22,428 nucleotides of DNA from Gemmatimonadota bacterium (lineage in GTDB: Bacteria > Latescibacterota > UBA2968 > UBA8231), in NCBI GenBank assembly GCA_038128265.1, contig JAYPJE010000061.1, forward strand, positions 1 through 22,428. Direction: 5' to 3'. A model generated the notes under the pieces. It was not told the origin of the DNA and did no database searches. It saw only the letters and a program-made list of their open reading frames with translations. Shown one piece after another: positions 1 through 18,464 of the stretch (position 1 is its first letter; each line of letters starts with the position of its first letter). Made by a program: the position numbers and the translations under genes.

Positions 1-438
1 GACGGCATCGACCAGTGGGCGCCCATTCCGGGTGAACTGCAGATTTCAGCGCCGGTCGGATCGGTCTATTTGCAGGACACGCGCGTCTGGCATTCGACGG
101 CGCTCAACCAGAGCGAGCACGAGCGCACGGCGGTGGTGTGTCGCTATGCGCCGTGGTGGCTGTCGGGCAACGAGTTTTGCAACCTGCACTCGGGCGGACA
201 CGCGCTGCGAACCTATGTGCCGCGCGAAGTGTACGAACGGTTTTCACCGGAATTACAGCTGCTCTACCGGCACTTGGTCGAAGGAGTAGAAGACGTGCTA
301 CAGCCAGAAAGTCAGCATCGAGCGATCCGTGCTCAGGGGTTGCGCGCAGCTGAACGAACTGTAGACAATAGCCACATAGTTGTCGGTGCGATGAGCAGCG
401 AAGAATGGGCCCGTCGCAATGCGGCCAATGCCCCATAG
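1..438 (+). CDS. Phytanoyl-CoA dioxygenase (PhyH)-family Fe(II)/2OG dioxygenase, 5'-truncated by window edge
   Basis: Frame is open from base 1 (DGIDQWAPIPGELQISAPVGSVYLQDTRVWHSTALNQSEHERTAVVCRY). This matches the PhyH C-terminal pattern G-x-hhh-D-x-R-x-W-H...N...R with the distal iron-binding His. Stop TAG at 436-438. Confidence 0.75.
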   Translation, partial: DGIDQWAPIPGELQISAPVGSVYLQDTRVWHSTALNQSEHERTAVVCRYAPWWLSGNEFCNLHSGGHALRTYVPREVYERFSPELQLLYRHLVEGVEDVLQPESQHRAIRAQGLRAAERTVDNSHIVVGAMSSEEWARRNAANAP

Positions 439-448
439 GCATCGGCTC

Positions 449-2632
449 ATGAAGCGGCAACTATATCTGGACTATGCCTACCAGGTTGCGGACCTAATCT
501 GGCAGGACTACGACGCCCTGCGAAACCAAGCCATCGAAAAGGGCAAAGCAGCACTGCGCGATCAGGGAAAGCTGCAAAATACGTTTCAGTTTGTCGGCAC
601 CGTCGCGCCCGCTGAGGCAAGGCGTTACAGGCAGACGGGCGAAGCGCGTTATCTGGAACGGGCAAAACGCTACTTGCTCGACGTGCATGACGTTTATCAC
701 GCGCTGAAGACCTATCAGGAAGCGGAACACATTGCGCTCCGCAACGCCGATTTTCCAACGCTCGGCTGGATGTTCGAGCCCGAGCCCTATATCAGCACGT
801 ACAATGAGATCAAGGGTATAGCCGACTTTACGGACGAGGAAACCGCATACGTCGAGACCGTCGTCGAATTGGCGATGCGACCGATTGAACGGATGCCGGA
901 GTACGGGCCGATGAACCGCAGTATGCTGCGTGCCCTTAACCTAGCGGCGGCCGGTTCGTCGTTTCCCGAGCACGAGGAAGCCGCGAAATGGCTGAAGATG
1001 GGGCGCCATATTTTCGCAGACAGCTTGGATAAGTGGTCGATGGAGGATTCCGGGGCGTATCAGGGCATTTGGCTATACAGCTTTATTGCGTATAACGAGT
1101 ATGTTCCCACGGTCAGTATAGAAGATAACTACGTCGTTAAACACTATGCCGATTTGTGGGCGAGACTGGTCACACCGCTCGGATTCATTCCCGACTACGG
1201 AGACTGGGACCTGGCTGAGGACTGGGTTCATATCGCGGCTGTCATGGAAAAGTGCGCGACCCTTTATCATTCCGCCACGCTCAAGTACGCTGTTAACCGC
1301 TTCACGGAAGCGCAGGTTGGACACGCCTCGGGACTTTCGGGTGGGATAGACCGTTTTCTGCGGCAGTTGGTCTCCGCCTACGACTGGTCGGATGATGATC
1401 TGGCAGAACAGAAGCCTCCACCGCATTCTCAAGAAGCATGTGATGACACAATTGGCAAGAAATGCGTCTTCCGCAACGGCTGGGATCGCGATAGTACATA
1501 CCTGTTACTCAACTATCGAGATGAGCCGGAGACCAACGAGATCTATCGAAAAAACCTGACGCTTACCATTCCAGTCAAAGCGGAAAAAACGCATCACGGC
1601 CACAGCGACGAAAACGCCCTCTGTATGCTCATTGCACAAGGGCGCATGCTGCTTACCGAAAGTGGCTATCGAAAGGGATTTGAACGAGGCTGCACGTATC
1701 GGAGCGACTACTACCACAATAAACTCATCGTCCGCAAGGGCGTCACCAAGGCGTATTCGTTCTTTGATCACATTATTGACTTCGGCGAATACAATCCCGT
1801 GCAGACGGAGCGCATTTATTTTTACCGTTTCGACGAAGTAGACTGTTCGAGAACGCGCTTATACGACACCCGCAACGCAGCGGTGTGCGACCGAGTCGTC
1901 TATTATCTGAAGAACGAAGACTGCTTTATCGTCAATGACGTTGTCTTGCCCGGGGAAGACGGCAGTTATACGCTCGGGCCTGTCTACCACGCACAGGATA
2001 TCAAACCGGCCGGCAGTAGAAGTTATGTTCTAAGCCAGATGGAAATCAGCAGGGGACAGGAGTTGACGTATACACAGCCAGGTGATGTGAAGCTCTATTT
2101 ACACTTCCCGATGGATGAACACAATGTCGAGTTGCAGGCGATAGACCGAGCCTATCGGAACCAAATGGCGGTGAGTCAGTTTTTTGCGGGATACGCGAAC
2201 GGGCAGTTTCCGCTCTTTTTTTCTTCGGTGCTATACCCGAGTCGACACGGTGCGCCGTCTTTCTTCGACTCATTTAGCTACCAGAAGAAGCCCAAAGGAG
2301 TGGGCCTTCAGTTTTCTATCGGTGAACGGTGCTACACTCTGTTCGATCGCTACTGCTATGAGTCCAAGATAGAAGACCTCAACAAACGCCCCGCGTATTC
2401 CTTTGCAGCAGGGCGAGAGCACGTTTTCGGAATCGAAACAGACGCGTATTCTGCCGTGACCATTCAAGACGACGAATCCACGTACTTTTGCTGCGTCGAC
2501 TTTAGCACGTTGATCTACGAGGGTAAATCGCTCTTCGAGATGGAGGCGATGGAACAGCTGCAGCTGGATTTCAACGATCCCCTCAAGCGAACAACGAGCT
2601 GGAGCAATTGGGATGACCGAGTTTATATGTAG
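449..2632 (+). CDS. Heparinase II/III-like protein (putative polysaccharide/oligosaccharide lyase), no obvious signal peptide
   Basis: Helical N-terminal half with EDSGAY and PDYGD. It is followed by FRNGW..., HHGHSDEN, GRMLLTESGY and YRSDYYHNKLIV, typical of the heparinase II/III beta-sandwich domain. ATG 449 chosen over 419 because it avoids overlap with the upstream gene. Confidence 0.7.
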   Translation: MKRQLYLDYAYQVADLIWQDYDALRNQAIEKGKAALRDQGKLQNTFQFVGTVAPAEARRYRQTGEARYLERAKRYLLDVHDVYHALKTYQEAEHIALRNADFPTLGWMFEPEPYISTYNEIKGIADFTDEETAYVETVVELAMRPIERMPEYGPMNRSMLRALNLAAAGSSFPEHEEAAKWLKMGRHIFADSLDKWSMEDSGAYQGIWLYSFIAYNEYVPTVSIEDNYVVKHYADLWARLVTPLGFIPDYGDWDLAEDWVHIAAVMEKCATLYHSATLKYAVNRFTEAQVGHASGLSGGIDRFLRQLVSAYDWSDDDLAEQKPPPHSQEACDDTIGKKCVFRNGWDRDSTYLLLNYRDEPETNEIYRKNLTLTIPVKAEKTHHGHSDENALCMLIAQGRMLLTESGYRKGFERGCTYRSDYYHNKLIVRKGVTKAYSFFDHIIDFGEYNPVQTERIYFYRFDEVDCSRTRLYDTRNAAVCDRVVYYLKNEDCFIVNDVVLPGEDGSYTLGPVYHAQDIKPAGSRSYVLSQMEISRGQELTYTQPGDVKLYLHFPMDEHNVELQAIDRAYRNQMAVSQFFAGYANGQFPLFFSSVLYPSRHGAPSFFDSFSYQKKPKGVGLQFSIGERCYTLFDRYCYESKIEDLNKRPAYSFAAGREHVFGIETDAYSAVTIQDDESTYFCCVDFSTLIYEGKSLFEMEAMEQLQLDFNDPLKRTTSWSNWDDRVYM

Positions 2633-3994: not shown

Positions 3995-4283
3995 CGGCGA
4001 CCTCCCCTGGTATGCGATGTGAGACAAAGATACAACCGTATGCATTTTTCAGCCCGCCTATTTTATAGAATGGTATTAAATATTGTTCTGTTGGGTCGCT
4101 ATGTGTTAACGCGCTACATCCGCAGCTCGCGCCCAGATATGAGCGCAGAAAAAACTTGTGCCGGGTAATGTCTTTTAGTCCGGCGAACTCCTAAATTATC
4201 TGAGCATTTGGCGCCGCGGTTGGGCGATGACTTGCAGTGCCAACAGAACGGCGTTTGTGCTGCTTTTATCAGAGAAATGGATC
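3995..4283. promoter_or_regulatory. AT-rich divergent intergenic/promoter region
   Basis: Non-coding gap between divergent genes with AT-rich tracts such as TTTTATAGAATGGTATTAAATATTG. No confident -35/-10 pair assigned. Confidence 0.4.
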
Positions 4284-6797
4284 ATGTCCAATCTAGCTAA
4301 AGTTCGGGCCGGCTATCGGCGCTTGCGCGAGCGCATATATGAGGCGATGGAAGTTGCCATGCCCGGCGATGTGCTGAGCCGCGTGCTCAATCTGGGCATT
4401 ACGGCGCTTATACTCATTAGTATTGCAGCCTTTGCACTCGGCTTTGTCGCTCGACTGGCGCCCTACAGAGCCTACTTAGACCTAGTCGAAACAGTCTCCG
4501 TTGCTCTATTTACAGCAGAGTATCTGCTGCGACTGTGGTCGTGTGTAGCCTCGGCGCGCCACACGCGCCCATTGATCGGTCGCTTGCGCTTTGCCATGCG
4601 CCCGATGATGCTCATTGATCTGCTCGCCGTACTGCCCTACTATCTGCCATTTTTCTTTTCCCTGGATTTGCGTCTGCTGCGATTGCTGCGTCTGACGCGC
4701 CTGCTGCGCCTGCTTAAACTGGCCCGCTATCTGAAAGAGTCGCCGCCCGACGAGTCGGCCGTTGGTGACCTACTCAACGAATATCAGCGGAGCATGGCGC
4801 AGCAGCGCGGCCAGCTGACGGCGCTGCGCGACGAAAATATGGCGCTGCGCCGCCAGCAAATAGACGGCGCCATTGCCGATATGCGCCGCGCGCAGCAGCT
4901 GTGGCAGGTGCGCCGCCGCCGCAGCACCGTCGAGGGAAGCGAGCGCGAGGCGATTGAAGCGCCCATTGACGTGCTCGCGGCCGCGCTGGCTGAGCAGCAG
5001 TGGCTGGAGCAGGTAGCTCAGCAAAACGGAGCGATCTACGGCCGAGCGGCCGCGCTGTTTGACGAGGCGCCGCACGCAGCTACGCTGGGCGTCGATATAG
5101 GCTGGAAGAACATTCGCAGCTTTACGCGCGTGCCCCTGCAGCGCATTGGCACGCACCACTTTCGCGGGTTGGACGCGCTGCACGGAGCGGCCTTTGCGCG
5201 CTTTAGTCGCTCCTATGCGGAAGAGACGCGTCGCCGACTCGAAGCGGTGCGCACGGCTGTCAGCTACGCGCTGGATCAGGGCGAGCGAGAAATGGGCGGC
5301 AGCTTTTCGCAGGAGATGCGCGTGAGTTTGAATCGCGCGACCAACCGACTGCGAGACTTGGGCGACCCGGTGCGCGCTGCCTGGGATGGACTGATTTGGG
5401 AGCTGCAAGACGAACAGCAAAATCGCATTGAACGCGTGCAGGTAGATATTGCCCGCTACGGCAGCGCGATGTTTTATGTCGGGCGCGCGTGGCGTTCAGT
5501 CGACGTGGGTTCGCGCCGCCTGCGCGAGCGCGCCATTGATCTATTCTACGAATTTCTGCCGCGCGTCCGCGCCGCGCTGCGCACTGCCTATCGGCGGGCT
5601 AGCAGTCAGATTGAACCGGTTCTCTACTGGCTGGGCCTAGTTAAAGCCGAGGCGCGCGAGGTGCTCGAGGCCATCGACCAGGCGCAAATGACGCCGCGTC
5701 AGGATCTGGCCGAGGACTATCGTAGGCACTTCACGTTTGCGCCGTTGGAAAGCGACGAGCTCTTCGTGGGATTTGACGAGGAACTCGCTCTCATCGACCA
5801 GGCCATACAGCGTTGGGAGGATGGATTGACCACGTCGTTTATCGTGCACGGTCAGCGCGGTTCGGGAAAGACGACGCTGCTCAATATTGCGCAGGAGCGT
5901 CTGTTTGAAGATGACCAGATTGTCGTGCGCGCTTCCGTCGAAGAGAAGATCATCGGTGTAGATGCGTTGGTCCATTATCTCAGCAGCCTGCTTCAGCTAG
6001 GCTCAGTCGGTGATGTGGAAGAGTTGGCCCAGCGCCTGCTGCAGGAGCCGCCCAAAGCCATTCTGCTCGAGAGCTGCCACAATCTATTTCTGCGTAAAAT
6101 CGGCGGGTTAGAAGCGATGCGTCACCTGCTGTGGCTCATCGCCCGCACCAACCACCACGTTCTGTGGGGTATATGCATGGGGCGCCATGCGCGCGATTAC
6201 TTGACCAAGTTTCTCGCGCTCGACCAGCTATTTCACTTCGAGGTGCGGATCAGTGCGTGGGAGCCGAACGAGCTGCGGCAGCTGCTGCTTTTGCGCCACG
6301 ACCAGAGCGGCTATAGCCACAGCTTTCTGCTCGATAAGAGCCTAGAGCGCGTGCTGCGCCGTCGGCTGCGCCACTGGCGTAGGGTAGAAGAGCCGGCCGT
6401 ACAGGAAGCCCTCGAGCGGATCTTTTTTGAAGAATTGGCAGAAATTAGCGGCGATAATATCCTCGTCGCGCTCTACTATTGGCTGCGAGCCCTGCAGGCA
6501 AGCGGCCGCGATCACTACGCCGTGCGACCGCTGCGCGAGCTAGACCTTGATCTGGTAAAGTCAATTACCCTTGAACAGGCTTTTATCCTAGCGGCTGTGT
6601 TTCATCACGACAACCTAAGTGCGCAGGAAACGGCGGATATTCTCGATGCCAATGCGATACAGACGCGGCTCATGCTGGAGATATTGGACAACTTTAATAT
6701 TCTGGACTTCGACCAGCAAACGCGGCGCTATCGCGTCAACCCAGTGGTGTTGCACTCCGTGAGCGAAACGCTGCGCGAGCGCAACCTGCTTTACTAA
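4284..6797 (+). CDS. Fusion protein: Kv-type voltage-sensor domain (S1-S4, no pore) + long helical/coiled-coil region + STAND/AAA-like P-loop NTPase + C-terminal winged helix
   Basis: S2 VETVSVALFTAEYLLRLW, S3 IDLLAVLP, S4 RLLRLLRLTRLLRLLKLAR (about 4671-4730). Then hydrophilic helices, FVGFDEEL, Walker A GQRGSGKTT (5850-5876), Walker B-like AILLESCHNL, ISGDN, and a wHTH-like tail LSAQETADILDAN..LEILDNFNIL..RYRVNP. ATG 4284 preferred over 4227. Confidence 0.8.
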   Translation: MSNLAKVRAGYRRLRERIYEAMEVAMPGDVLSRVLNLGITALILISIAAFALGFVARLAPYRAYLDLVETVSVALFTAEYLLRLWSCVASARHTRPLIGRLRFAMRPMMLIDLLAVLPYYLPFFFSLDLRLLRLLRLTRLLRLLKLARYLKESPPDESAVGDLLNEYQRSMAQQRGQLTALRDENMALRRQQIDGAIADMRRAQQLWQVRRRRSTVEGSEREAIEAPIDVLAAALAEQQWLEQVAQQNGAIYGRAAALFDEAPHAATLGVDIGWKNIRSFTRVPLQRIGTHHFRGLDALHGAAFARFSRSYAEETRRRLEAVRTAVSYALDQGEREMGGSFSQEMRVSLNRATNRLRDLGDPVRAAWDGLIWELQDEQQNRIERVQVDIARYGSAMFYVGRAWRSVDVGSRRLRERAIDLFYEFLPRVRAALRTAYRRASSQIEPVLYWLGLVKAEAREVLEAIDQAQMTPRQDLAEDYRRHFTFAPLESDELFVGFDEELALIDQAIQRWEDGLTTSFIVHGQRGSGKTTLLNIAQERLFEDDQIVVRASVEEKIIGVDALVHYLSSLLQLGSVGDVEELAQRLLQEPPKAILLESCHNLFLRKIGGLEAMRHLLWLIARTNHHVLWGICMGRHARDYLTKFLALDQLFHFEVRISAWEPNELRQLLLLRHDQSGYSHSFLLDKSLERVLRRRLRHWRRVEEPAVQEALERIFFEELAEISGDNILVALYYWLRALQASGRDHYAVRPLRELDLDLVKSITLEQAFILAAVFHHDNLSAQETADILDANAIQTRLMLEILDNFNILDFDQQTRRYRVNPVVLHSVSETLRERNLLY

Positions 6798-6810
6798 AAC
6801 GAGATTGCTC

Positions 6811-7638
6811 ATGGAGACGTCCGTGTTGGAGGCGGGAACCGGCGGGCCCATTAATATCACCGTTGGCAAGGTGCTATTGCTGGCCTTTGTGGTGCTCTGT
6901 GCCTACGGGATAAATAGCGGAATAAATTTTCTGCTCGAGCGGCTTGCCGAGCGCCTGCCGGCGCAGCGACTGCTTTTCAAGCGCCTGATTCCCATTCTGC
7001 GGCTCTGCGTCTACGCGTTCACCATATATCTCGGTGTAACGGTTGTCAGTCCACAGCGTGAATCGCTCTACGCTATGCTTGGTTCGATGGCCCTTGCGCT
7101 GGGCCTGGCAGCCAAGGATCTGCTGACGGATATCATCGGTGGTATTGTCGTACTATTTGACCGCTCTTTTCAGGTGGGGGACCGCGTTGCCGTCGGCGGC
7201 TACTACGGCGAAGTCGTTTCTATCGGTTTGCGTTCGACAAAAATTGTTACCGTAGACGATTCGCTTGTTACCGTACCAAACTCAACGGTGCTCTCTTCGG
7301 CTGTATCCAATACCAACGCTGGGGCGATAGACTGCCAGGTCGTAGTCGATATGTATCTCCCGGCAGACTGTGACCTGACACAGGTGGAAACCATTGCGCG
7401 TGAGGCCGTGCTGACTTCCAAGCTGGCCTATTTGAACAAGCCCGTGGTAGTCAACGTGAAGGACGAGTTCAAAGAGACCTACCTGACGCACCTCGTCGTT
7501 AAAGCCTACGTATTTGACACGCGCTACGAGAATGCCTTTGCCGCCGATTTGACGCGCCGTATCAAAAAAGAGTTGGCGCGCCGCGCGCTCGTGCCGAGCG
7601 ATGGGCGTTTTGCCTCGAGTTCAACGTCGGGCATGTAG
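6811..7638 (+). CDS. MscS-family small-conductance mechanosensitive channel
   Basis: Three TM segments, ALALGLAAKDLLTDIIGGI, FQVGDRV, GEVVSIGLRSTKI, VPNS. Starts 13 bp after the VSD-NTPase stop. Confidence 0.92.
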   Translation: METSVLEAGTGGPINITVGKVLLLAFVVLCAYGINSGINFLLERLAERLPAQRLLFKRLIPILRLCVYAFTIYLGVTVVSPQRESLYAMLGSMALALGLAAKDLLTDIIGGIVVLFDRSFQVGDRVAVGGYYGEVVSIGLRSTKIVTVDDSLVTVPNSTVLSSAVSNTNAGAIDCQVVVDMYLPADCDLTQVETIAREAVLTSKLAYLNKPVVVNVKDEFKETYLTHLVVKAYVFDTRYENAFAADLTRRIKKELARRALVPSDGRFASSSTSGM

Positions 7639-7703
7639 AGGGTGAATATCTCGTAAAGGGAGCGAGCCTCGATCGCGCTGTGGGGTGCGCCGTTTCGGCT
7701 GCT

Positions 7704-9662
7704 CTACTCTGCGTCGTATGGCGTGAATTCGGCGGGGTTAATGCCCGTTGTATAGGTGGCAAGCATAATGACTTCGCCGTCGTCTCCCAGATCCCAGTGC
7801 TGCCCTTTGTCTGGGTTGAGAAAGGTGCTGTTGTCGAGACGCAGCCCCAGAGCCGTCTGGCCGCGCGCCTGGGCGGCCGCCTGCACCTGGTCAAAGCGCA
7901 CCGGCCCTTGCAGGCCGCAGTCGGACGCCTTGCAAAAGCAAATCTCTGCTCCACCCGGCCCGAATAGTTCGTCAAAGACCGCGCGCAGTTCACGGCGCAG
8001 CGCCACCTGTGCCAGCATGTGGCTGATGATCTGTGGGCTGACGAGAACTTCCGAGGGGGAGTCGTCAAAAAGCGCCGTATTTTCCGATTCCATCAGTTCG
8101 ACGATGATCGGGGGACCGTCTTCGCCAATCAACTCGCGCAGCAGCAGGTGGCCGAGCGTCGTGCGCGCGTCGGACTCGCCTTCCGACTCTAGCCAATCGC
8201 TGCCGAGTAGGACGATGCCGTCATAGGTGTGCGGCCTCAGACGCGCCAGTTCGTTGGGCGCGGTAAAGTCGCCTTCGTAGTGATGGACGCGAACGGATTG
8301 GGGGTGCACCTCGTGGCGCTCGAGCAGGCGCTGGCGCTCTTCGATGCCGACGTAGGCGAAAATGTCGATGGCGAACTGCTCGCCGGCGTAGCGATCGAAT
8401 TCGCTGAGCAGTGCCGGTGCGCGATGGCTCCATCCTAGCACCAGCAAGCGGCGCTCGTCTCTGCGCTCCTGCTGCGGCGCTGCGGCCGAGACCTCCTGTG
8501 AATGCGGCGTAAAGGTCTGCAGTGCCGTCGTATCGGAAAAAGTGCGCGCGATGAATACCAGTCGATCGCCCTGTTGCACTTCGGTTTCTGGGGGCGGGTT
8601 GAGCAGGGGAGCGAACCCGCCTCCGGCTTCGGGGCGCAGGGCACCTAAAAGCACGGCATCCGGAAAGGCCGGTCCGAGACCGCCCATGCGCTGCCCGACC
8701 AGTGCGTCGCCGCTGCGCACATACACTTCGTTGGTGCGGTCGCCGCTAAGCAATTCGTTAAAGACCTTTGACAGACCTGGATGACGCAGAGTCTGCACAA
8801 TGAGTCGGCTTATAAAGAGGTCGCTGCTAATAATTTCCACGGGGCCAGTATAGGCGCGCACGCCTACCATGACTTTGCGGGGGTCGAATATTTCGGCAAC
8901 GATAAGCGGAATGCGCTCTGCACCGTTGTGTGCGGCGTGACGCGATATTGAGAGCAATGTTTTGATCGTGCGTGCATCGGCTTGCATTGCTCCGTCATAA
9001 AACGAACCGGGCAGGATGACAGCCGCTGCGTTGGCAAAGTCGACGCGGTGCAGGTGGTCTATATCGAGCGGCGTGCCAGTGCGAAATACGATGTGCTGAC
9101 TGTCCCACAGCGGACCGAGGTGGTCGCGCAGTTCCTGCACCCGCTCGGCATTTACCTCTTCGGCGAGCACGGCGATGTTGAGGCGGCGTGCTCCGTAGCG
9201 GCGCAGAAAGCGGTGCAGGCGTTCCTCAGACGACGACAGCAGTTCTTCGATAATGGGGGCCGTGCGGTTGGTCCAACCCAACACCAATACGTGATCGCTC
9301 TGAGTAATGGGGGTCAGCCCGCTTTCCAAGCGTCGCATCGTCTGCGCTAACCACTGCGACATGATGGCGATGAGTGCACCCATAAAGAGCACATAGCCCG
9401 AGATGGTAACAGCGGTCGATACGGTCCGACGCACCAGCCCTTCGTCATCGCCGAGGTAGCCGGGATCGGTGAGGCGTAAAAAGGCCCACCACATCGCTTC
9501 GCCTGCGCTAGAAAACCCGCCCGCAAATTCCATGACGAGCGCGCCGCCGACAGCGGCTATGATCCCGAGCAGCGCGGCGATGAAGAGCAGGCGATAGTGC
9601 GCGCCGCGCAGCAGCATGCGTTCGACGAGAAAGGTAAAGCGGTCTTTCGCTCTCTTTATCAT
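7704..9662 (-). CDS. CASTOR/POLLUX (DMI1)-like cation channel with two RCK domains
   Basis: TM-pore-TM with WWAFLRLTDPGYLGDD filter region. RCK1 HVLVLGW and RCK2 RLLVLGWS. Family motifs ADARTIKTLL, PGLSKVFNELL, SDARTT, MLAQVAL..ELRAVFDELFGPGGAEI. Confidence 0.82.
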   Translation of the reverse strand: MIKRAKDRFTFLVERMLLRGAHYRLLFIAALLGIIAAVGGALVMEFAGGFSSAGEAMWWAFLRLTDPGYLGDDEGLVRRTVSTAVTISGYVLFMGALIAIMSQWLAQTMRRLESGLTPITQSDHVLVLGWTNRTAPIIEELLSSSEERLHRFLRRYGARRLNIAVLAEEVNAERVQELRDHLGPLWDSQHIVFRTGTPLDIDHLHRVDFANAAAVILPGSFYDGAMQADARTIKTLLSISRHAAHNGAERIPLIVAEIFDPRKVMVGVRAYTGPVEIISSDLFISRLIVQTLRHPGLSKVFNELLSGDRTNEVYVRSGDALVGQRMGGLGPAFPDAVLLGALRPEAGGGFAPLLNPPPETEVQQGDRLVFIARTFSDTTALQTFTPHSQEVSAAAPQQERRDERRLLVLGWSHRAPALLSEFDRYAGEQFAIDIFAYVGIEERQRLLERHEVHPQSVRVHHYEGDFTAPNELARLRPHTYDGIVLLGSDWLESEGESDARTTLGHLLLRELIGEDGPPIIVELMESENTALFDDSPSEVLVSPQIISHMLAQVALRRELRAVFDELFGPGGAEICFCKASDCGLQGPVRFDQVQAAAQARGQTALGLRLDNSTFLNPDKGQHWDLGDDGEVIMLATYTTGINPAEFTPYDAE

Positions 9663-9729
9663 GGTTGCACCTTAAAGGCAATGGGCTGAATACGCGCGCG
9701 TTTGCCATACGCCCAGGCGCAGTACCTGA

Positions 9730-11868
9730 CTAAAACCACTTGTCTTTTCGAGCATATCCCAAGCCGAGCTGTAGCTCAGATTTGATCCCCGTCGAGCCGA
9801 CGGCGCTGCTGCGGTGCGCGAAAAAGTTGGCGTCGATTGATAGGTTGAGGTCGCTGCCGAGTCGGACAGTGAGCGAGTTGTACTGCTGCAGCGATAGCGT
9901 GCGCGCTTTGGACGCTCCGACAAATAGCTTGCACGAGGAGCTGAAGCCGTTGCCTTTCCACTGCGCCTTATATTCGGGCAGCAACTCGATACCCAGGTCG
10001 CTTTCGCCGGTGGCTACATCGCGCTCCCAGCCCAGCCCGACGCGCACGTTTCCACGCTGGCCGAGCGAGCGCTGCAGGCCGGCACTGGCGCGCAGCGTTA
10101 GCGGCCGCGGATGCCCCTGCTGCGTGGTCCATACGCTATTGGCTGCCAGCGCGGCAAAGGGTGCCGGACTGCGCGTCTGGCGCGTGTAGGTCATATCGAC
10201 CTGCAGTCGATCGCTCGACTCGCGAAAGCGACCATCGTTGCGCACTTGCCCGTAGTTAGAGCGCACCTGATGTTCGAGGCGTCCGCTGGGCACCTCGCTG
10301 CTCAAGCGCCCGTCAAAGAGGCCGTTCCACGCTAAGGCGCTGCGACCGCTGAGAAAAGATACGTCTTGGTAAGCGGCACCGCCGTCGCCAATTCCGGTCC
10401 AGCTAAGCGCGCCGCTTAGTTTGAAAGAGCTCTTCCAAACCCGCGCACTGTGTTCCCCATGTTCTTTGGCTGGCCCAGTTAGGTGGTCGATGATAAGCTC
10501 TTTGAGGGTGGGGTGTGCGCCGCTGGCATAGACGAGTTCGCGCGGCTTTAGATAGGCGTCACCACCTTCGGCTAAATAGGCGGTCGTGCTAACGCGGTAT
10601 TGTTCGTCTGGGATAAGCTTGCGCCCATTAACCGTTTTGGCGGATGGGTCGTATCCAGCAAAGACGAGGCGCTGGCTCTGCTTGTCGCGCACCGAGCTCT
10701 GCGCACCGAGCTCGACTAGCTGATCGCCGCTGAGGTCTAGTATAACGACGAAGTCGTCGTAGCGAACGAGGCGCCGAACTTCCCCCACGGTAATGCTATC
10801 CTCTAGGGCAAATGCGTTCACGGCACCGCGGTTTATAACGCTGACCTCGCTATGCGCACCGCTACGCATTAGGGACGCAATCCAGGCCGGCGCGTCGTCG
10901 ACGCGTTCGAGTAAACTGCCCACTACAAGGCGACCGGACTCGGCAAAGCGCTGCTGCAGACCGGCAATGGCATCGCCGGTTTCGGGATCAGGGCCGCTGC
11001 TGCCGTCTATGGGCAGCAGCTGGGCGACAAATGTTGTCTCGACTAGCTGATCGCCGCGTCGCACCCACTGCAGCGCAATGCGGCCGACGTGCGTGCCGCC
11101 AGCGGGGGTAGATATCAGGCGCGTCCCCCCGGCTAGCTGCACCTGGTGTAGGGAAGATGCCCGGCTGTCGGCGCGACGAAAACCGCCGGTTATGCACAGG
11201 TCGATGGCGGGAAAGCGCTGGGCCAGTGCCACGGCTTCTTCTTCCTCCATGTGCAAGAGGGCAATGGTATAATCGGCTGAATCGCTCAGTGCGGGCAGCA
11301 ATGTGTCCAGCGCGGCGAAGGGATCGCCCACTTGTAATCCGGAATTGTGCAGTGGGTTGATCAGCTTGGCAGTGGCCGGAGACAGCAGGCCGACGATCGC
11401 AATGCGCAGCCCGTTGCGCTCGATAAGAGTCCAGGGCTGCAGCGGATTGTCGTTGGCCGTTTGCACGTTGGCTGCCAGCAGGGGAAAGGGCAGCTGGCGC
11501 GCGCGCGCGCGCAGCGTATCGAGTCCGTAGTCGAACTCGTGGTTGCCGACGACCATGGCATCGTAGCCGGCATCCGCCATGAGCCGCGCGACTAGTGCGC
11601 CGCGGTCAAAGCGCGCTAGCGAGGAGGCGCCCAGCGCATCGCCGCCGTCGAGCATAAGCGCGCTGGCATTGGCTCTGCGCTCCCGTTTGAGCAGGGCCAG
11701 CAAATGGGCAAAGCCGCCGGAGATCGCGTCTCCACCGCTGCGCGGGAGCAGCTGACCCTCCAAGTCGTTTGTGTGCAAAATAGTCAGCTGGTGAATGTGC
11801 TGTTTGTCGTCGCCATATGCGGTATGGAGTAGCAAAGCCCAAAAAAACACTGTGGCGAACGCGCGCAT
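9730..11868 (-). CDS. Secreted UshA/5'-nucleotidase-like metallophosphoesterase with degenerate metal ligands, fused to a C-terminal putative outer-membrane beta-barrel
   Basis: Signal peptide MRAFATVFFWALLLHTAYG. Motifs TILHTND, LDGGD, VVGNHEFDYG, IALLH. 5'-nucleotidase C-domain (INRG, LSGDQL, YLAEGGDAY). The last roughly 235 aa are alternating amphipathic strands ending in LGLGY...WF. Confidence 0.75.
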   Translation of the reverse strand: MRAFATVFFWALLLHTAYGDDKQHIHQLTILHTNDLEGQLLPRSGGDAISGGFAHLLALLKRERRANASALMLDGGDALGASSLARFDRGALVARLMADAGYDAMVVGNHEFDYGLDTLRARARQLPFPLLAANVQTANDNPLQPWTLIERNGLRIAIVGLLSPATAKLINPLHNSGLQVGDPFAALDTLLPALSDSADYTIALLHMEEEEAVALAQRFPAIDLCITGGFRRADSRASSLHQVQLAGGTRLISTPAGGTHVGRIALQWVRRGDQLVETTFVAQLLPIDGSSGPDPETGDAIAGLQQRFAESGRLVVGSLLERVDDAPAWIASLMRSGAHSEVSVINRGAVNAFALEDSITVGEVRRLVRYDDFVVILDLSGDQLVELGAQSSVRDKQSQRLVFAGYDPSAKTVNGRKLIPDEQYRVSTTAYLAEGGDAYLKPRELVYASGAHPTLKELIIDHLTGPAKEHGEHSARVWKSSFKLSGALSWTGIGDGGAAYQDVSFLSGRSALAWNGLFDGRLSSEVPSGRLEHQVRSNYGQVRNDGRFRESSDRLQVDMTYTRQTRSPAPFAALAANSVWTTQQGHPRPLTLRASAGLQRSLGQRGNVRVGLGWERDVATGESDLGIELLPEYKAQWKGNGFSSSCKLFVGASKARTLSLQQYNSLTVRLGSDLNLSIDANFFAHRSSAVGSTGIKSELQLGLGYARKDKWF

Positions 11869-11880
11869 GATCAACGGGCG

Positions 11881-13326
11881 CTAGTAGGTGATATGGGTGC
11901 GGGCTTCCGCCCAGTGCACATCCATGTCGAGGACGGCGCGGTGCACAGAAGCCGATCTGCTTAGATCTGCGTTGGCCGCGGGCACGGGGTCCTCTCGGGT
12001 GCCGGCGATCCACGGGCGTAGCGCGTCGCCCGACCATACGGCATGCGCTGTTCGATAGCCCAGATAGCCATCGCCGCAGTGACTGCAGCCCCGCGGTTCG
12101 GCCAGCACGGCGCCCTCGCCAAAGAGAGCTTCTGCTTCGCCGGCTGTCGGGCTAGCTTGGCGGCAGTGTTGGCAGAGCTGGCGCATAGAAGTGAATTCGA
12201 CGGCGCCGAGCAGTACGCGTGCAAGGTCCGCCGCGATCACTTCGCTACTCAGCAGGCGCAGCAGGGCATCGCGGATGCCGCTGGCGCTGACAAAGGCGAT
12301 GACCAGAGCGCCGGCGCCGGCCCCTTGGATCAGTGAGCGCACCTGTGTGGGGTCGAGCACGTCTTCGACGAGTATGGCGTTGGGGCGCATATCGAGCGCG
12401 GTGCGCCACAGCGCAGAGAAATCGCCTTCGCTACCCATGTCCAACTGGACGAGCGAATCGTCGCGATACTGAACGGGGCGCTGTAGGCATACGACTAGGC
12501 GGCCCTCGTCGGCAAGGTGCTGGGCAAGGCCCAACTGTTGGCGTTCGGCGTTGGGGCCGGGTGAACCGGCCAAAATGACCAGACCCGGTCGACCAGATAG
12601 AATGGGCTTGAGCGCGTTGGCCTGCGCGGGTAGGTAACCGAGGCCCTCCAATCCGCGGTTCTCCACATCCAGGAAGAAGTGCAGGTGTATCAGCTGGCCC
12701 AATAGGGTGGGCACGGCCGCTAGGCGCAGCTGGTAGCTGACGCCATTGCAGGCGTGTTGGCCGAGCGCTTGACCAATGCCGCCCTCGTTCGGTATGGGAG
12801 CTAGACTGATGACCCATTCGACGAGCTTGTTGGCCAGGACAGCCGGAAAGCGGGCGCGTTCGCGCCGATTACCCTCCTGTCCGGCCAGCAGGCGCATGCC
12901 ATCGTGCAGCGGGTCGAAATACAGGTCGGGGATTGAGTCTAGCAGGGCATCGCGCAAGATGAGGCGTCCGAGTTCTGCTACTAGTGCGTCGGTATTGGCT
13001 GCGTCGATCGTGGGTAGTTCGCCGAGCTGTCCGCGTGCAGTCAGGCGTTCGGTGAAATGCGCTGTGGCTTCTTGGAGGGCGCTGCGCAGCTGCTGGCCCT
13101 CGTCGGCGACGGTGCGCTGATAGCGCTCCAGTTCGGCAGCGGCAAAAAACAGGTGCCGATCGCGCTTTTCGCTCTTGAGCGCCCCGTCCACGACGCGGCG
13201 GTAGACTTCGGCGCGCTGCAGCTGGAGGCGTTTGGCCGCCTCGTCTAGGTCGTAAAATACCTCGCTCTGTGCGGTATCGCCATCGGGCGCCGCTGCGCTT
13301 GTATCGCTTGTTTCCGCTGCAGACAC
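11881..13326 (-). CDS. N-terminal excisionase/MerR-like HTH fused to a PilB/GspE-like secretion ATPase domain with lost catalytic motifs
   Basis: YDLDEAAKRLQLQRAEVYRRVVDGALKS (HTH_17-like). PilB-like IPDLYFDP, LRLAAVPTLLG, GLVILAG, LDMRPNAILVEDV and tetracysteine CQHC...CSHC. GTG start with GAGG RBS. Confidence 0.72.
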   Translation of the reverse strand: MSAAETSDTSAAAPDGDTAQSEVFYDLDEAAKRLQLQRAEVYRRVVDGALKSEKRDRHLFFAAAELERYQRTVADEGQQLRSALQEATAHFTERLTARGQLGELPTIDAANTDALVAELGRLILRDALLDSIPDLYFDPLHDGMRLLAGQEGNRRERARFPAVLANKLVEWVISLAPIPNEGGIGQALGQHACNGVSYQLRLAAVPTLLGQLIHLHFFLDVENRGLEGLGYLPAQANALKPILSGRPGLVILAGSPGPNAERQQLGLAQHLADEGRLVVCLQRPVQYRDDSLVQLDMGSEGDFSALWRTALDMRPNAILVEDVLDPTQVRSLIQGAGAGALVIAFVSASGIRDALLRLLSSEVIAADLARVLLGAVEFTSMRQLCQHCRQASPTAGEAEALFGEGAVLAEPRGCSHCGDGYLGYRTAHAVWSGDALRPWIAGTREDPVPAANADLSRSASVHRAVLDMDVHWAEARTHITY

Positions 13327-13330
13327 GTCG

Positions 13331-14164
13331 TTATTCCTCGCGTTTTAGGTCGATGTCTTTGGCGGGCACGACGACGGCCAAACCGGCTGTCTCAAACTCC
13401 TTGCGCATCTGCGAGATGACGTCGCCAAATATGTTCATCGTGTCGACCGCACTCCACGCTTCCAGCATTACTAACACGCTATCGCCGGTTACATCCGATA
13501 CGGTAAATGTGGGAGCTGGCTCATTGAGCACGGCCTCGTGGCGTTGCAGCACGCCGAGTGCCAGGTCTTCTACCCAGTCGATATCCAATTCGTAGGACAG
13601 GCGCATGGGAACGCGTATGGCGCGCGTATCAAAGGTGGAAAAATTGACTATTTTGTTGCGCCACATCACCGAGTTGGGCACGATAATGTTGACGTTGTCC
13701 AGCGTCACCATGCCGGTATAGGTCATCTTTACTTCCGTGACTCGGCCAATTTGCGCCGGTGGGCCAAACTCGATGAGGTCGCCCTGTTTAAAGGGACGTG
13801 CGGCAAGCATCATAATGCCGGCAAAATAATTGGCGATCGACGTGCGTGCGCCCAGACCGATGATGACGCCGCTAATGCCAAAAGTGGTCAGTAGCGCATC
13901 AACGGGAAAATGTGCCTGCTTGAGAGCGGTTACGTAGCCGACGATCATCACGCCGTAGCGCAGCACCGTGCTCAGGTAGTTCCACAGTATTTCGTCGCCG
14001 CCAAGGCGCTGCATGGCGCGCAGGACGGCGCGTTTGCTCCACAGGCCTGCCCACCAGCTGGCGATGGCGATCAGCGCGCCCAGCATCAGGTCGGGCAGCC
14101 AGCCTAGCAAAGCCGTGGCGTACTCTTCCATGCGCGTAATGACGATGTCGTTGAGACGTTCCAT
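13331..14164 (-). CDS. MscS-family mechanosensitive channel (short, canonical type)
   Basis: GISGVIIGLGARTSIANYFAGI, PFKQGDLIE, GRVTEV, IVPNS. AGGAG RBS upstream. Confidence 0.92.
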   Translation of the reverse strand: MERLNDIVITRMEEYATALLGWLPDLMLGALIAIASWWAGLWSKRAVLRAMQRLGGDEILWNYLSTVLRYGVMIVGYVTALKQAHFPVDALLTTFGISGVIIGLGARTSIANYFAGIMMLAARPFKQGDLIEFGPPAQIGRVTEVKMTYTGMVTLDNVNIIVPNSVMWRNKIVNFSTFDTRAIRVPMRLSYELDIDWVEDLALGVLQRHEAVLNEPAPTFTVSDVTGDSVLVMLEAWSAVDTMNIFGDVISQMRKEFETAGLAVVVPAKDIDLKREE

Positions 14165-14190
14165 TCCCCGCTCCTACCGCCTTTTATTCG

Positions 14191-15117
14191 CTATGCGCTC
14201 TCGCCCATCGCACGAAGGGGCACTCCCTCGGGGTGGTGGTAGATGGTTCGGTGCGGGTAGGCGAATTCGACGGCCCTGCTGTGCGCCACTTCGCGCAGCA
14301 GAATGCGCACGATATCGCTGGAGACGCGCTGGCGATCCTTGGCTAGCGTCTGGTAGCGCAGGCGCGCCATAATACCCGATTCAAACAGCTCGGCGCGCAC
14401 GAACGGTGCCTGGCCAGTATGCTGTATAATGTCTGACGTTACTTGGCGGGCGGCTTCGAGAAAAATGCGCTCGGCTTCGTCAAAATCAGAGGCGTAGGTA
14501 ATGCGAATGGGGACTTCGTCAAGGATGTAGTTCGAGATGTTTGCGTCGCTGTCTTTATCGACCCCTTCCAGCGTGTAGTTGTATATGATCTGGCCGAAAA
14601 GGGTGGCGTTGGGAATGAGCACGGCGCGTCCCGACTTTTCTTCGCCGCCAATGGTGCCGCCGACCTGGTTGAGCAGCACGTGCGTCAGATTGATGTCGAC
14701 CACATCGCCGATAATGCCAGAGATAATGATGCGGTCGCCAATTTTGAAAGGGCGCTTCAGGATAATCATTAGCCAGGCGGCAATGCCCGTTACAGGTGCC
14801 TGCAGCGACCATCCCAATACCATGCCGAGGAAAGCAGCCGATAGCCCTAGCGTTGCTAGGGAGCCGGAAAAGCTGATAATGCCAAAGATGAAGCCAACGG
14901 CCATCCACACGTAGCGATAGATGAATAGAAAGTGCTGGACGTTGTCTTCTTTATAGGCTTTGGTAAGCAGGTAGCGCCGCAGCAGCCGGCGCGAAACTTG
15001 GTAGCCAACCCACAGAAAGACCAGTGTAAAAACGCCGAGCACGGGCGCATCTAACTCGACGTACTCTCCAGCAACGCGGGCGAATTCTTCGTACATGACG
15101 GCTATTTCTTCGTACAT
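14191..15117 (-). CDS. MscS-family mechanosensitive channel
   Basis: LGMVLGWSLQAPVTGIAAWL, RPFKIGDRI, GDVVDINLTH, SGRAVLIPN, EFAYPH. Alternative ATG at 15096 created by a tandem duplication. Confidence 0.9.
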   Translation of the reverse strand: MYEEIAVMYEEFARVAGEYVELDAPVLGVFTLVFLWVGYQVSRRLLRRYLLTKAYKEDNVQHFLFIYRYVWMAVGFIFGIISFSGSLATLGLSAAFLGMVLGWSLQAPVTGIAAWLMIILKRPFKIGDRIIISGIIGDVVDINLTHVLLNQVGGTIGGEEKSGRAVLIPNATLFGQIIYNYTLEGVDKDSDANISNYILDEVPIRITYASDFDEAERIFLEAARQVTSDIIQHTGQAPFVRAELFESGIMARLRYQTLAKDRQRVSSDIVRILLREVAHSRAVEFAYPHRTIYHHPEGVPLRAMGESA

Positions 15118-15126
15118 GACGGCTAT
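15085..15126. repeat. Perfect 21-bp tandem duplication spanning the mscS start codon
   Basis: TTCTTCGTACATGACGGCTAT at 15085-15105 and 15106-15126. Confidence 0.95.
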
Positions 15127-15198
15127 GGACCTTCTCTTCCTATGCTGATGTGCCGCAACTCAGTTGGGCGATGCTTGGGCGTTTCCCGATGCTAAGCT

Positions 15199-15276
15199 TT
15201 CACTAAAATATGCCAAATAGTGAACTCTTGCGACGGCAGAATGGCTTTTTGGGAAAAAATCGAAAAAAATATGCCA
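15199..15276. promoter_or_regulatory. Candidate operator region upstream of the mscS-mscS-HTH/PilB-nucleotidase-CASTOR operon
   Basis: Inverted repeat TTCACTA-N12-TAGTGAA (15199-15224). 11-bp direct repeat AAAATATGCCA at 15205-15215 and 15266-15276, inside an AT-rich intergenic gap. Confidence 0.4.
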
Positions 15277-15431
15277 CGCACTCGCGGAGGTCAGGCCGTC
15301 TAGGATTAGGGTGTATAGGGCGCGGTCATCGGCGGGTTGGATGCCCCCGATTAGGGAGGTGATGGAGGGTTGAGCTCGGGAGAGCCGCCTGCGGCTGATA
15401 GCCGTTTGCCGGGGGTGCAATGCGGCGCGGT

Positions 15432-16403
15432 TTAAGCGCTCGATGGTTCGAGGACCGCTAGGTGAATAACGGCATCGCCGCGGTGCACCAGCGGATCGAT
15501 GGCTTGGCCGACGACCAGGCCACCCATGGGCGCCTTAATTTGGACCGTTTCGTCGCCGAACGGATCGCTGACCTCTCCGAGGATTTGTCCCGTGCGCACC
15601 TTCTCGCCCAGGCCTACGCGCAGGCGCAGAATGCCGCTTTGCCTGGTTCGCACCCAGGTTGCTTGGTGCGAAAGGGCTGCCTCACCGCGCCGGCGCTGGG
15701 GTGCCCGCTTAATCATGCCTAGGTGCGACATGACGCGCAGCACGCCGTCGACCCCTGCGACAATGGCGTCTTCGTTGAAGCGGTGTGGCTCGCCTGCTTC
15801 GTAGAGCAAAATGGGAATGCCGCGTCGGTTGACCTCGCTGCGCAGCGAGCCGCGCGGGGCCGTGCCGTGCATGATAACCGGGGGGGCAAAGGCCTCGGCC
15901 ATGGTCAGCGCTTGTGGGTTGTCTAGGTTGCAGCGAATCTGCGGCAGGTTGACGCGCGGTGGTGCGGCCGTATGCAGGTCAATGGCGTGCGTGCATTTGC
16001 CAACGACTTCTGTCATAAATAGATGCGCCAGACGCCCGGCCAGCGAACCGCGCGCCGAACCGGGGAAAGAGCGGTTTAAATCGCGGCGGTCGGGTAGGTA
16101 GCGCGACTGGTACACAAAGCCGAAAACGTTGATAATCGGCACGGCGATGAGCGTCCCATCTATTTTGTCGGGCTGCAGTTTTGCCAGTATGCGGCGCACG
16201 ATTTCAATGCCGTTGATTTCGTCGCCGTGCAGCGCCGCGCTTACAAAGAGGCGCGGGCCGGGTTTTTTACCGCGCAGGACCTCGACGGGCATAGAAAGCT
16301 GGTCGTGCGTGTAAAGGCGACCGACGGGCAGGTTGATTTTAACCCGTTCGCCTGGCTCAATCGTGGTGCCGCCTATACACAGGCGTTGGTGCGCAGAGTC
16401 CAT
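15432..16403 (-). CDS. Succinylglutamate desuccinylase/aspartoacylase (AstE/AspA, M14-like Zn carboxypeptidase) family protein
   Basis: HGDEING, DRRDLNRSFPG, IDLHT, YEAG, plus a C-terminal barrel-sandwich hybrid domain. Starts 12 bp downstream of rimK. Confidence 0.9.
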   Translation of the reverse strand: MDSAHQRLCIGGTTIEPGERVKINLPVGRLYTHDQLSMPVEVLRGKKPGPRLFVSAALHGDEINGIEIVRRILAKLQPDKIDGTLIAVPIINVFGFVYQSRYLPDRRDLNRSFPGSARGSLAGRLAHLFMTEVVGKCTHAIDLHTAAPPRVNLPQIRCNLDNPQALTMAEAFAPPVIMHGTAPRGSLRSEVNRRGIPILLYEAGEPHRFNEDAIVAGVDGVLRVMSHLGMIKRAPQRRRGEAALSHQATWVRTRQSGILRLRVGLGEKVRTGQILGEVSDPFGDETVQIKAPMGGLVVGQAIDPLVHRGDAVIHLAVLEPSSA

Positions 16404-16415
16404 ATCGTTGCGTTT

Positions 16416-17321: not shown

Positions 17322-17600
17322 TGCTGCTTCCTTTCATTGCGAAGCGCTGGATCGGTTTTCTAGCGATCGTAGCCTTACGAGCACTCGACGCTCGGATGAG
17401 GCCACACAAATATAGAGAAAAACGACTATTTTATGAGTGGGGCCAGCACATTTGTTGGCCGCCCACGTTATCACATATTTTTGTGGCGTGCGCACGAAAG
17501 TCGTATTTGTTGGGCCGACGGGTTATGCGGCTTTTGCCGTCCGATGCAATAGCACGGAACGAGAGCCGCCCACGCGCGGCGTTTACGTGGAGGGGAGCCA
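17322..17600. promoter_or_regulatory. Divergent promoter region between rimK and the mscS-kch pair
   Basis: Non-coding, relatively AT-rich gap. Short dyads GGCCAGCA-CATT-TGTTGGCC and CACA-TATTTT-TGTG. Strong RBS GGAGGGGAG before TTG 17601. Confidence 0.4.
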
Positions 17601-18461: not shown

Positions 18462-18464
18462 TGT

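Follow-up and report, generated by a model that had tools for sequence, protein, structure and literature searches.

What does a voltage sensor without a pore do in a bacterium when it is fused to a nucleotide-binding module, and on what does the fused protein act? The question is raised by a gene in a 22,428-nt stretch of DNA from an uncultured marine or estuarine Gemmatimonadota bacterium that GTDB places in the Latescibacterota (assembly GCA_038128265.1, contig JAYPJE010000061.1, positions 1 to 22,428; the whole stretch is referred to as the window). The gene encodes an 837-aa protein composed of four parts, i.e., a pore-less S1-S4 voltage-sensor domain (VSD), a 320-aa helical stalk, an ORC/Cdc6/STAND-like AAA+ NTPase and an acidic winged helix, and it is directly followed by a gene for an MscS-type channel. 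Domain architecture, its conservation, and a near-obligate pairing of the NTPase gene with an MscS-type gene are established by the present data. The protein may well be, if short of probably, a voltage-sensing, membrane-tethered version of the NTPase that acts as the nucleotide-dependent regulatory partner of a dedicated MscS-type channel. The features of the gene pair are as follows, with the basis of each assignment in brackets.

4284..6797, plus strand: gene for the VSD-stalk-AAA+-winged-helix protein, 837 aa (start by homologue length)
4284..4736, plus strand: pore-less voltage-sensor domain (Pfam Ion_trans, KCNQ matches, helices of the AlphaFold2 (AF2) model)
4668..4727, plus strand: S4 helix with a basic residue at every third position (R130, R133, R136, R139, R142, K145, R148)
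4761..5723, plus strand: predicted cytoplasmic helical stalk, residues 160-480 (domain model)
5763..6503, plus strand: AAA+ NTPase base and lid (AAA_16, Foldseek)
6549..6794, plus strand: predicted C-terminal winged helix, acidic (AF2 secondary structure 756-832, ORC/Cdc6 fold match)
6811..7638, plus strand: MscS-type channel, 275 aa (PF00924, alignment with E. coli MscS)

The open frame of the NTPase gene spans 4227..6797 on the plus strand and offers two starts, the ATG at 4284, which yields 837 aa, and an in-frame ATG further upstream at 4227, which yields 856 aa. The start at 4284 is favored because the five closest homologues match that length (837-843 aa, 69-89% identity, 100% of the length aligned).

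The N-terminal domain has four helices that match S1-S4 and is a VSD by this criterion. Pfam Ion_trans matches residues 33-151 (E 3.4e-12, 46.5 bits with a cutoff of 25) over profile positions 2-113 of 241 only, and since the match ends at position 113, the domain is assigned as S1-S4 without S5-P-S6. The pore unit of a six-transmembrane (6TM) voltage-gated channel is absent by this profile stop, by a hydropathy scan of the 837-aa protein, which returned no hydrophobic segment beyond residue 127, and by the AF2 model (26 homologues; mean pLDDT 76.2, pTM 0.51), in which soluble helices follow residue 160 and no hidden pore was found. The model shows a pre-S1 helix (3-24), S1 (30-53), S2 (56-89), S3 (96-124) and S4 (129-148), then a short break, long soluble helices (160-449), the alpha/beta NTPase and the winged helix (756-832). 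In a PDB sequence search with residues 1-165, the voltage sensors of KCNQ3, KCNQ1 and KCNQ2 were the best matches (E 4.8e-8, query residues 8-146), with an alignment that takes in the pre-S1 helix and the S2-S3 stretch GRLRFA.RP; Kv2.1, Kv4 and Kv3.1 follow. A preliminary description of this DNA, made from its letters alone, had proposed a pore-less S1-S4 module joined to a P-loop NTPase, a helical region and a winged helix; this reading is borne out, and the motifs that it quoted are in place, with ETVSVALFTAEY at residues 69-80 of S2, IDLL at residues 111-114 of S3, RLLRLLRLTRLLRLLKLAR with its seven basic positions (130, 133, 136, 139, 142, 145 and 148) at residues 130-148 of S4, and GQRGSGKTT at residues 523-531. 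No phosphatase family is found among the Pfam matches of the 837-aa protein at E<=1.

The stalk, modeled alone (pLDDT 84.5, pTM 0.67), consists of long antiparallel helices and one beta hairpin (266-283). It has no Foldseek match at E<=0.001, and in a VIA-align search the highest rows, 4uos (designed bundle, Z 14.9), 5owv (pair of bacterial dynamins, Z 11.2) and 4whj (stalk of MxB, Z 10.6), fall in a range of Z that is common for helical bundles and from which no functional inference is drawn. The stalk would be an elongated connector or possibly an oligomerization element.

The NTPase is recognized by Pfam AAA_16 (residues 494-601, E 9.3e-8). Its Walker A motif, G523-T530 (nt 5850-5873), conforms to GxxxxGK[ST], and the Walker B strand ends in E596 (nt 6057-6074), a position that is Glu in 24/26 and Asp in 2/26 relatives, where all counts of 26 refer to an alignment (A1) of 26 full-length VSD-type relatives. 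The Walker names, as well as T622 as sensor-1 and R671, are what we take these residues to be from general AAA+ motifs. Foldseek matches of the C-terminal ~360 residues are led by archaeal ORC2/Cdc6 (1w5t_A, 5.8e-8; 1fnn_A, 1e-7), followed by a Pyrococcus ATPase (2qen, 5.9e-7) and then by CED-4 and plant NLRs. By these matches, base, helical lid and C-terminal winged helix are all present, which assigns the predicted fold to the ORC/Cdc6/STAND branch of AAA+ proteins. The earlier label STAND-like holds for the fold, but does not extend to C-terminal sensor repeats (TPR, WD40, LRR): the winged helix closes the protein at residue 837, and no Pfam repeat family is matched.

Both halves of the protein are conserved. 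In the VSD, R83, D112 and R136 are invariant (26/26 each), W85 is kept in 25/26, E79 and R133 in 24/26, and R130 and E69 in 21/26 relatives; E69, E79 and D112 are presumably counter-charges and F76 the charge-transfer residue, roles that we assign by analogy. In the NTPase, T622 and R671 are invariant (26/26), K529 is found in 25/26 and E596 in 24/26, and Walker A is invariant in a wider alignment of 28 rows. The fusion is retained down to 35% identity across the 26 aligned proteins, and the preservation of VSD counter-charges, three S4 arginines and NTPase motifs implies selection on both halves.

The preliminary description had named a chimeric junction after S4 and a lack of recurrence in other genomes as outcomes that would speak against the fusion. 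Relatives of residues 160-837 were found at E<=1e-10 in 22 of 168 species genomes of the source's group (referred to as the phylum). In 13 of these, the source genome (G000) included, the match starts no more than 18 residues from the beginning of the stalk, in an open frame of 794-872 aa; contig ends cut the gene in two further VSD-type genomes (G075, G160), which brings the total to 15/168 at 35-91% identity. Several of the genomes are single contigs (G072, G083, G084, G086), some of them closed, and the gene is present as a single copy per genome. A search with residues 160-837 returned 25 clusters of 795-860 aa (40-91% identity) and one 474-aa fragment, and the half-profile N-terminal match to Ion_trans recurs in most of the clusters tested. 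VSD-type representatives labeled Gemmatimonadota (P0092) and Acidobacteriota (P0116, MEW5983035.1) are also found.

Public read sets bear on the same point. The stretch 4200-7700 is present in 20 public runs of 10 studies, from metagenomes labeled as estuary, marine, seawater, power-plant and biofilm. At 4730-4760, the S4/linker junction is bridged by independent contigs in 4/4 runs from four studies that exclude the possible source sample, with no joints or indels, and the stop/start junction at 6797-6811 is likewise bridged by contigs of four runs with no joints or indels. An artefact of assembly or gene calling, with a chimeric junction after S4, retains practically no probability in view of these contigs and of the recurrence in 15/168 genomes, single-contig ones included, and in the Gemmatimonadota- and Acidobacteriota-labeled proteins; the chimera hypothesis is refuted. 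Within the spacer between the two genes, positions 6808-6810 carry three adjacent variants in contigs of other studies, and the flanking coding sequence varies sparsely. Three RNA-labeled runs contain only 0.05-0.08 of the words sampled from stretch 4200-7700. Six proteins that were considered as further pore-less fusions (P0076-P0081) were rejected, as they carry full-length Ion_trans repeats, four in five of the proteins and two in P0081; P0076-P0080 are proteins of 1169-1309 aa from metagenome sources with four complete repeats (4 x 6TM, Nav/Cav-like).

The most informative fact on the locus, which is absent from the preliminary description, is the pairing with an MscS-type gene. The ATG of the partner at 6811 lies on the same strand, 13 nt past the TAA stop of the NTPase gene (6795-6797). 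PF00924 (MscS beta domain) matches the partner with E 4.6e-21, residues 14-255 align to residues 29-261 of the 286 of E. coli MscS (E 2e-15), and NCBIfam MscS models match at 1e-19, under their equivalog cutoffs. Judged by these alignments, the partner has the TM3 pore helix, the beta domain and the alpha-beta domain of an MscS protein; the solved MscS entries that it matches all contain 7 chains or multiples of 7. No convincing terminator is found between the two genes, and this, together with the 13-nt spacer and the common strand, indicates that NTPase and MscS are probably co-transcribed from the same operon.

An MscS-like gene lies directly downstream of the NTPase, on the same strand, in 38/39 loci with downstream DNA, across three architectures and several phyla; three weaker NTPase matches (G113:C386, G111:C131, G111:C217) are left out of this count, the loci from related genomes are not independent, and their labels span Gemmatimonadota, Alphaproteobacteria and unlabeled metagenome contigs. 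For the VSD type, the partner is found in 14/14 loci with downstream DNA and in G160, with its gene spread over two contigs, i.e., in 15/15 genomes. For a soluble type that lacks the VSD, it is found in 9/9 examined phylum loci (G065, G064, G114, G015, G011, G112:C42, G155, G115, G014), of which G112:C42 rests on Pfam only, G114 (~1e-7) and G155 (~1e-5) on weak tblastn matches that span 1e-5 to 1e-8, and G014 has an NTPase cut by the contig end. For a type fused to a CPA2 antiporter, it is found in 12/13 metagenome loci with downstream DNA, and two further loci have none. Finally, it is found in 2/2 Novosphingobium megaplasmids (L111, L112); plasmid pLA3 of N. pentaromativorans US6-1 (L111 3616-7868) encodes WP_007014233.1, an 'AAA family ATPase' of 1110 aa, and 2 nt past it WP_039857743.1, a 'mechanosensitive ion channel family protein'. 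In loci L001 and L030, the MscS gene was located by tblastn, at 96% identity in L001 and as a weak match in L030. The pairing is reciprocal, as the MscS subfamily of the partner (E<=1e-30) occurs in 20/168 phylum genomes, once in each, and adjoins an NTPase relative in 20/20. The two proteins also diverge together: identities of 96, 95, 73 and 66% for the partner go with 92, 83, 57 and 56% for the NTPase module, the range being 66-73% where the module is at 53-57%, and beside soluble relatives the partner is 41-47% and the module 25-33% identical.

The gene order bears on another account of the protein, as a membrane-tethered transcription regulator in which the AAA+ module, changing with voltage, would govern how the winged helix binds DNA and thereby how the adjacent mscS-like gene is expressed. 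ORC/Cdc6-type AAA+ proteins bind DNA via a C-terminal winged helix and regulators often adjoin their targets, and the ORC/Cdc6 fold match and the gene order are compatible with such a role. The last 80 residues, however, are acidic in all relatives (net charge -3 to -11 in 26/26, median -5), unlike DNA-binding winged helices, the winged helix of STAND proteins is structural, and the 13-nt spacer and same-strand order suggest co-transcription rather than a separate target promoter. We consider a role in transcription very improbable.

The wider family shows on what kinds of N-terminus the NTPase occurs. An exhaustive phmmer search of 1.84 billion representatives with residues 160-837 returned 2352 at E<=0.001 and 461 at <=1e-30, and outside the VSD-type proteins the matches cover just the last ~360 residues. 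A crude rule applied to the 150 listed of the 2352 representatives yields 87 soluble proteins of at least 900 aa and 22 of 700-899 aa, i.e., 109 soluble proteins of at least 700 aa without an N-terminal membrane segment; the other listed representatives comprise 22 fragments, 7 VSD-like proteins, 7 with one N-terminal transmembrane (TM) segment, and 5 proteins of 1482-1508 aa with at least 8 TM segments (CPA2/Na_H_Exchanger fusion class). Three of the one-TM proteins (P0099, P0115, P0116) are VSD-type by Pfam, and rule and Pfam together give ~9 VSD-type representatives among the 150 listed. Three of the proteins with at least 8 TM segments were scanned; two (P0147, P0162) match Na_H_Exchanger, and P0162 also matches the CPA2 subfamily TIGR00932 (2.4e-9). 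The NTPase thus occurs in three N-terminal versions, with a VSD, a CPA2 cation/proton antiporter or a soluble region of ~650 aa, and this answers the suggestion in the preliminary description that other N-terminal domains be sought on the same family. The CPA2 fusions (L032, L035, L037-L042, L060, L061, L084, L104) are proteins of ~1480-1510 aa with a Kef-like antiporter, a hydrophilic region of ~700 aa and the NTPase module, and each of these 12 listed metagenome contigs has an MscS-like gene next downstream.

Source names of family members are 'AAA family ATPase', 'ATP-binding protein', 'hypothetical protein' and 'GTPase SAR1 family protein'; a protein atlas holds 'hypothetical' or 'ATP-binding protein' clusters only, which are commonest in Bacteroidota and Balneolota, and no NCBIfam or PADLOC model matches the NTPase above noise. 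With 2352 representatives and no specific name or model in these three resources, the family is both large and unnamed. A scan of genome contigs returned one relative only, and a search by P-loop pattern found NTPase relatives in 0/596 stretches.

Because the MscS pairing is kept across exchangeable N-termini, the MscS-like channel is the likeliest conducting element, rather than the VSD; pairing and exchangeable N-terminus together shift the reading of the locus away from NLR-like immunity and toward ion/osmolyte homeostasis. In the mechanism that we propose, the ancestral system would be a soluble AAA+ switch with a dedicated MscS-type channel, whose switch would have gained a VSD at its N-terminus in the source clade and a CPA2 antiporter elsewhere. 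The usual topology of S1-S4 is N-in/C-in, and the VSD would accordingly anchor the switch at the membrane, with the NTPase in the cytoplasm by the cage of the MscS-like heptamer. The NTPase would dock on the cytoplasmic side of the heptamer and set the activity of the channel, i.e., the release of ions or osmolytes, and movement of S4 with the membrane potential would reach the NTPase via the short S4 linker and the 320-aa stalk, such that solute efflux would depend on voltage and on the ATP/ADP state besides membrane tension. Binding of NTPase and channel, the direction of control and the voltage dependence are the steps that we infer. A stricter version, a two-gene voltage- and nucleotide-gated valve in which a ring of AAA+ subunits, each on its own VSD, sits under the heptameric MscS-like channel and opens or locks its pore in response to S4 movement and ATP/ADP state, is possible but rather doubtful. 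Such a valve, if real, would be a voltage-gated channel built in trans with a pore from a different superfamily and would contain the first voltage-sensor-coupled ATPase, and the soluble and CPA2-fused relatives would be a widespread, unrecognized class of ATP-dependent regulators of mechanosensitive channels. Probability left over by the proposed mechanism and its rivals falls to other functions, such as assembly or turnover of the channel.

Several observations weigh against a voltage-sensing regulator of the channel. In the AF2 model, S4 is of low confidence (pLDDT <50 for residues 121-143). The charge-transfer Phe (F76) is kept in 16/26 relatives and replaced by Leu in 8/26, and the S4 charges vary past the third (R139 in 17/26, R142 in 12/26); the seven S4 charges and the transfer Phe emphasized in the preliminary description are thus traits of this protein and its near kin, whereas family-wide the aligned sequences have three or four S4 charges, not seven. 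Walker B has one acidic residue (LLES or LEG, then a conserved C-H-N) followed by Ser or Gly, with no second Asp/Glu, and because of this single acid the NTPase may be a nucleotide-binding switch in which hydrolysis is slow or absent. One CPA2-type locus (L083) has no MscS gene in the ~870 nt downstream. Gene adjacency, moreover, is a functional link and specifies neither binding nor the direction of control. A complex prediction for residues 160-837 with the partner speaks weakly for the mechanism: it scored 0.58, with 0.00 for the best of 3 controls, the runs agree in at least 95% of contacts and pLDDT of the partner is at least 75. The score, however, lies in the band graded as weak support and no interface was returned. 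The mark applied is reached by 116/157 solved complexes and 2/215 mismatched pairs, the band of scores <=0.60 contains 18 of the 157 solved complexes and both passing mismatches, and these calibration counts hold roughly, as the prediction was run on alignments made for this analysis. Lastly, a CPA2 transporter, when it takes the place of the VSD, resembles an output more than an input, and this favors an alternative in which the N-terminal module is the effector.

According to that alternative, the protein works as STAND and NLR proteins do: nucleotide-driven oligomerization of the NTPase would gather the VSDs into a leak for ions or protons that depends on voltage, or would switch the CPA2 antiporter, and MscS would be a tension sensor or a parallel output. 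It gains from the shared N-terminal position of VSD and CPA2 antiporter in sister fusions, from the NLR and CED-4 chains among the fold matches, and from an S1 that is lined by polar residues, with Asn at two polar positions in 22/26 relatives. S1 has no Asp in the alignment, however, and the Hv1-type Asp is absent from residues 30-53, as had been noted before; the position matching it, picked by eye and not by structural alignment to Hv1, is Ser in the 837-aa protein and Asn in 22/26 relatives. The hydrophobic plug is Phe or Leu in 24/26, which we take as a trait of non-conducting VSDs, and there are no C-terminal sensor repeats. Furthermore, 109 of the 150 listed representatives are soluble by the crude rule, and MscS is kept in 9/9 soluble loci examined; because loci without an N-terminal membrane segment retain MscS, it is MscS that appears as the common transport element. 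An N-terminal output is, in our estimate, unlikely, and the regulatory partnership with the MscS-type channel is preferred in what follows.

Voltage-sensing phosphatases (Ci-VSP/TPTE), which work by voltage-controlled enzyme activity and are cited in the preliminary description too, resemble the protein in combining a pore-less S1-S4, a short linker and a cytoplasmic catalytic module; they differ in that the module here is an AAA+ NTPase on a 320-aa stalk, in a bacterium and with an MscS partner gene, and no PTEN-like phosphatase is present. KCNQ/Kv7 and bacterial Kch-type channels are the closest sequence relatives of the VSD and have the pre-S1 helix and GRLRFA.RP in common with it, whereas the 837-aa protein lacks their S5-P-S6 pore. 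With ORC/Cdc6 and STAND proteins (Apaf-1/CED-4/NLR, MalT) it shares the order of AAA+ base, lid and winged helix, Walker A, T622 and R671, but differs by the lack of sensor repeats or a known effector domain, the single Walker B acid, the acidic winged helix, the membrane tether and the MscS pairing. In Kef/KTN and KATP systems, the activity of a K+ or cation pathway is set by a nucleotide-binding module in the cytoplasm. KefC/KefF, KTN/RCK-regulated CPA2 transporters and KATP (SUR plus Kir6) are alike in this combination, and CPA2 fusions occur in the NTPase family; here the module has an AAA+ fold rather than a Rossmann-type KTN or ABC fold, and the partner is an MscS-type channel. MscK, MscM and YnaI have the same MscS core as the partner (TM1-TM3, beta and alpha-beta domains), however, their regulation resides in one chain, whereas here a separate NTPase gene is the companion. 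In SLC9C1, a cation/proton exchanger is united with a VSD and with a regulatory domain that binds nucleotides, according to the available part of PMC6052114. Like SLC9C1, the NTPase family joins a nucleotide module to a VSD or a CPA-type exchanger, but the SLC9C1 modules lie in one chain with a CNBD, whereas here a protein has either the VSD or the exchanger at its N-terminus, the nucleotide module is AAA+ and MscS is the partner. Tmn (YobI family) and KAP likewise are P-loop NTPases anchored in the membrane, and in defence they link the turnover of nucleotide to the export of ions (PMC13001434, in the part available); their TM helices lie in or beside the P-loop domain, whereas all those of the present protein lie in residues 30-148, ~370 residues before Walker A, and KAP_NTPase is not among the Pfam matches of the 837-aa protein. 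In principle, the protein would work most like a voltage-sensing phosphatase and also recalls the Kef/KTN and KATP complexes, and it belongs to none of these systems.

The VSDs known so far, mostly eukaryotic, gate the pore of their own protein, pass protons themselves, or control a phosphatase or exchanger. The preliminary description knew of no characterized VSD-NTPase fusion, and none was found by us: the open-access full-text literature, supplements being outside its scope, returned no description of such a fusion or of an NTPase-MscS pair, and an existing mention is possible; nor did it return a comparable MscS regulator. The available part of PMC7159879 contains none of the terms MscS, mechanosensitive, voltage and ion channel, and neither 'ATPase' nor 'enzyme' occurs in that of a VSD review (PMC13661669). 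A bacterial VSD wired to an AAA+ switch would constitute a new output class for voltage sensing and would give a handle on how bacteria read their membrane potential, an open question in bacterial electrophysiology. The pair may be an undescribed bacterial link from membrane voltage and energy state to solute release and, VSD aside, the ATPase-MscS pairing points to ATP-dependent partners for some mechanosensitive channels. If N. pentaromativorans US6-1, a named strain, can be cultured, its soluble pair would be accessible to genetics, patch clamp and cryo-EM.

The surroundings of the gene pair contain channels and transporters and no defence genes. Genes in the window, apart from the pair, are as follows.

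419-2632, plus strand: 737-aa open reading frame (ORF) directly upstream, with no Pfam, NCBIfam or PADLOC match
7704-9662, minus strand: Castor/Pollux-like RCK channel
9730-11874, minus strand: UshA-like 5'-nucleotidase
11881-13326, minus strand: T2SSE-type ATPase with N-terminal HTH_17
13331-14164, minus strand: MscS-like gene
14191-15117, minus strand: MscS-like gene
15432-16403, minus strand: AstE/AspA-like enzyme
16416-17321, minus strand: RimK
17601-18461, plus strand: MscS-like gene
18465-19607, plus strand: Kch-like K+ channel with TrkA_N (PRK10537, 2.9e-63)

Together with the partner (6805-7638, plus strand, as ORF), the window has four MscS-like genes, and synteny around the VSD-NTPase is kept across genera and families, closed chromosomes included. 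This setting bears on anti-phage abortive infection, in which a STAND-like NTPase would sense infection and open an MscS-like pore or use the VSD, resulting in collapse of the membrane. The STAND/ORC-like fold is in keeping with such a function, as are weak sub-threshold matches to BrxC_BrxD and nSTAND models and, by the available part of PMC13001434, the precedent of Tmn (YobI family) and KAP/PifA, membrane P-loop NTPases that alter ion flux in defence. In PADLOC-DB 2.0, however, the best match of the NTPase has E 0.009 (SngB) and none reaches E<=0.001, and seven more proteins, among them the MscS partner, five neighbors and soluble/CPA2 relatives, have 0 matches at E<=0.001. One copy per genome, conserved synteny, neighbors that are channels, RimK/AstE and a 5'-nucleotidase, and the lack of a phage-sensing repeat domain likewise argue against defence, which we regard as improbable.

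The genes at 6805-19607 of the window form an ion-channel island. In another family of the phylum (L023, L024, L026), the VSD-NTPase is accompanied by parts of this set, namely a Castor-like channel, two further MscS genes, a 5'-nucleotidase, RimK and AstE. An ORF of the same length as the 737-aa one is present at the same place in an 89%-identical relative (L001 6110-8323), and none of that size is called in more distant VSD-NTPase loci. In two genomes that belong to one genus, the gene pair has a Cpn60/GroEL-type chaperonin gene beside it (L001 13449-15071, minus strand; L022 11859-12884, plus strand), which is not in the window. Other VSD-NTPase loci (L022 2954-7881; L024 4775-8106; L023 16319-16984) encode a KaiC-like ATPase with histidine kinase and receiver proteins, and the same set of loci contains sigma-54 response regulators, a 563-aa protein with four MS_channel_1st_1 repeats, and PspA; these neighbors may mark regulated envelope or osmotic stress loci.

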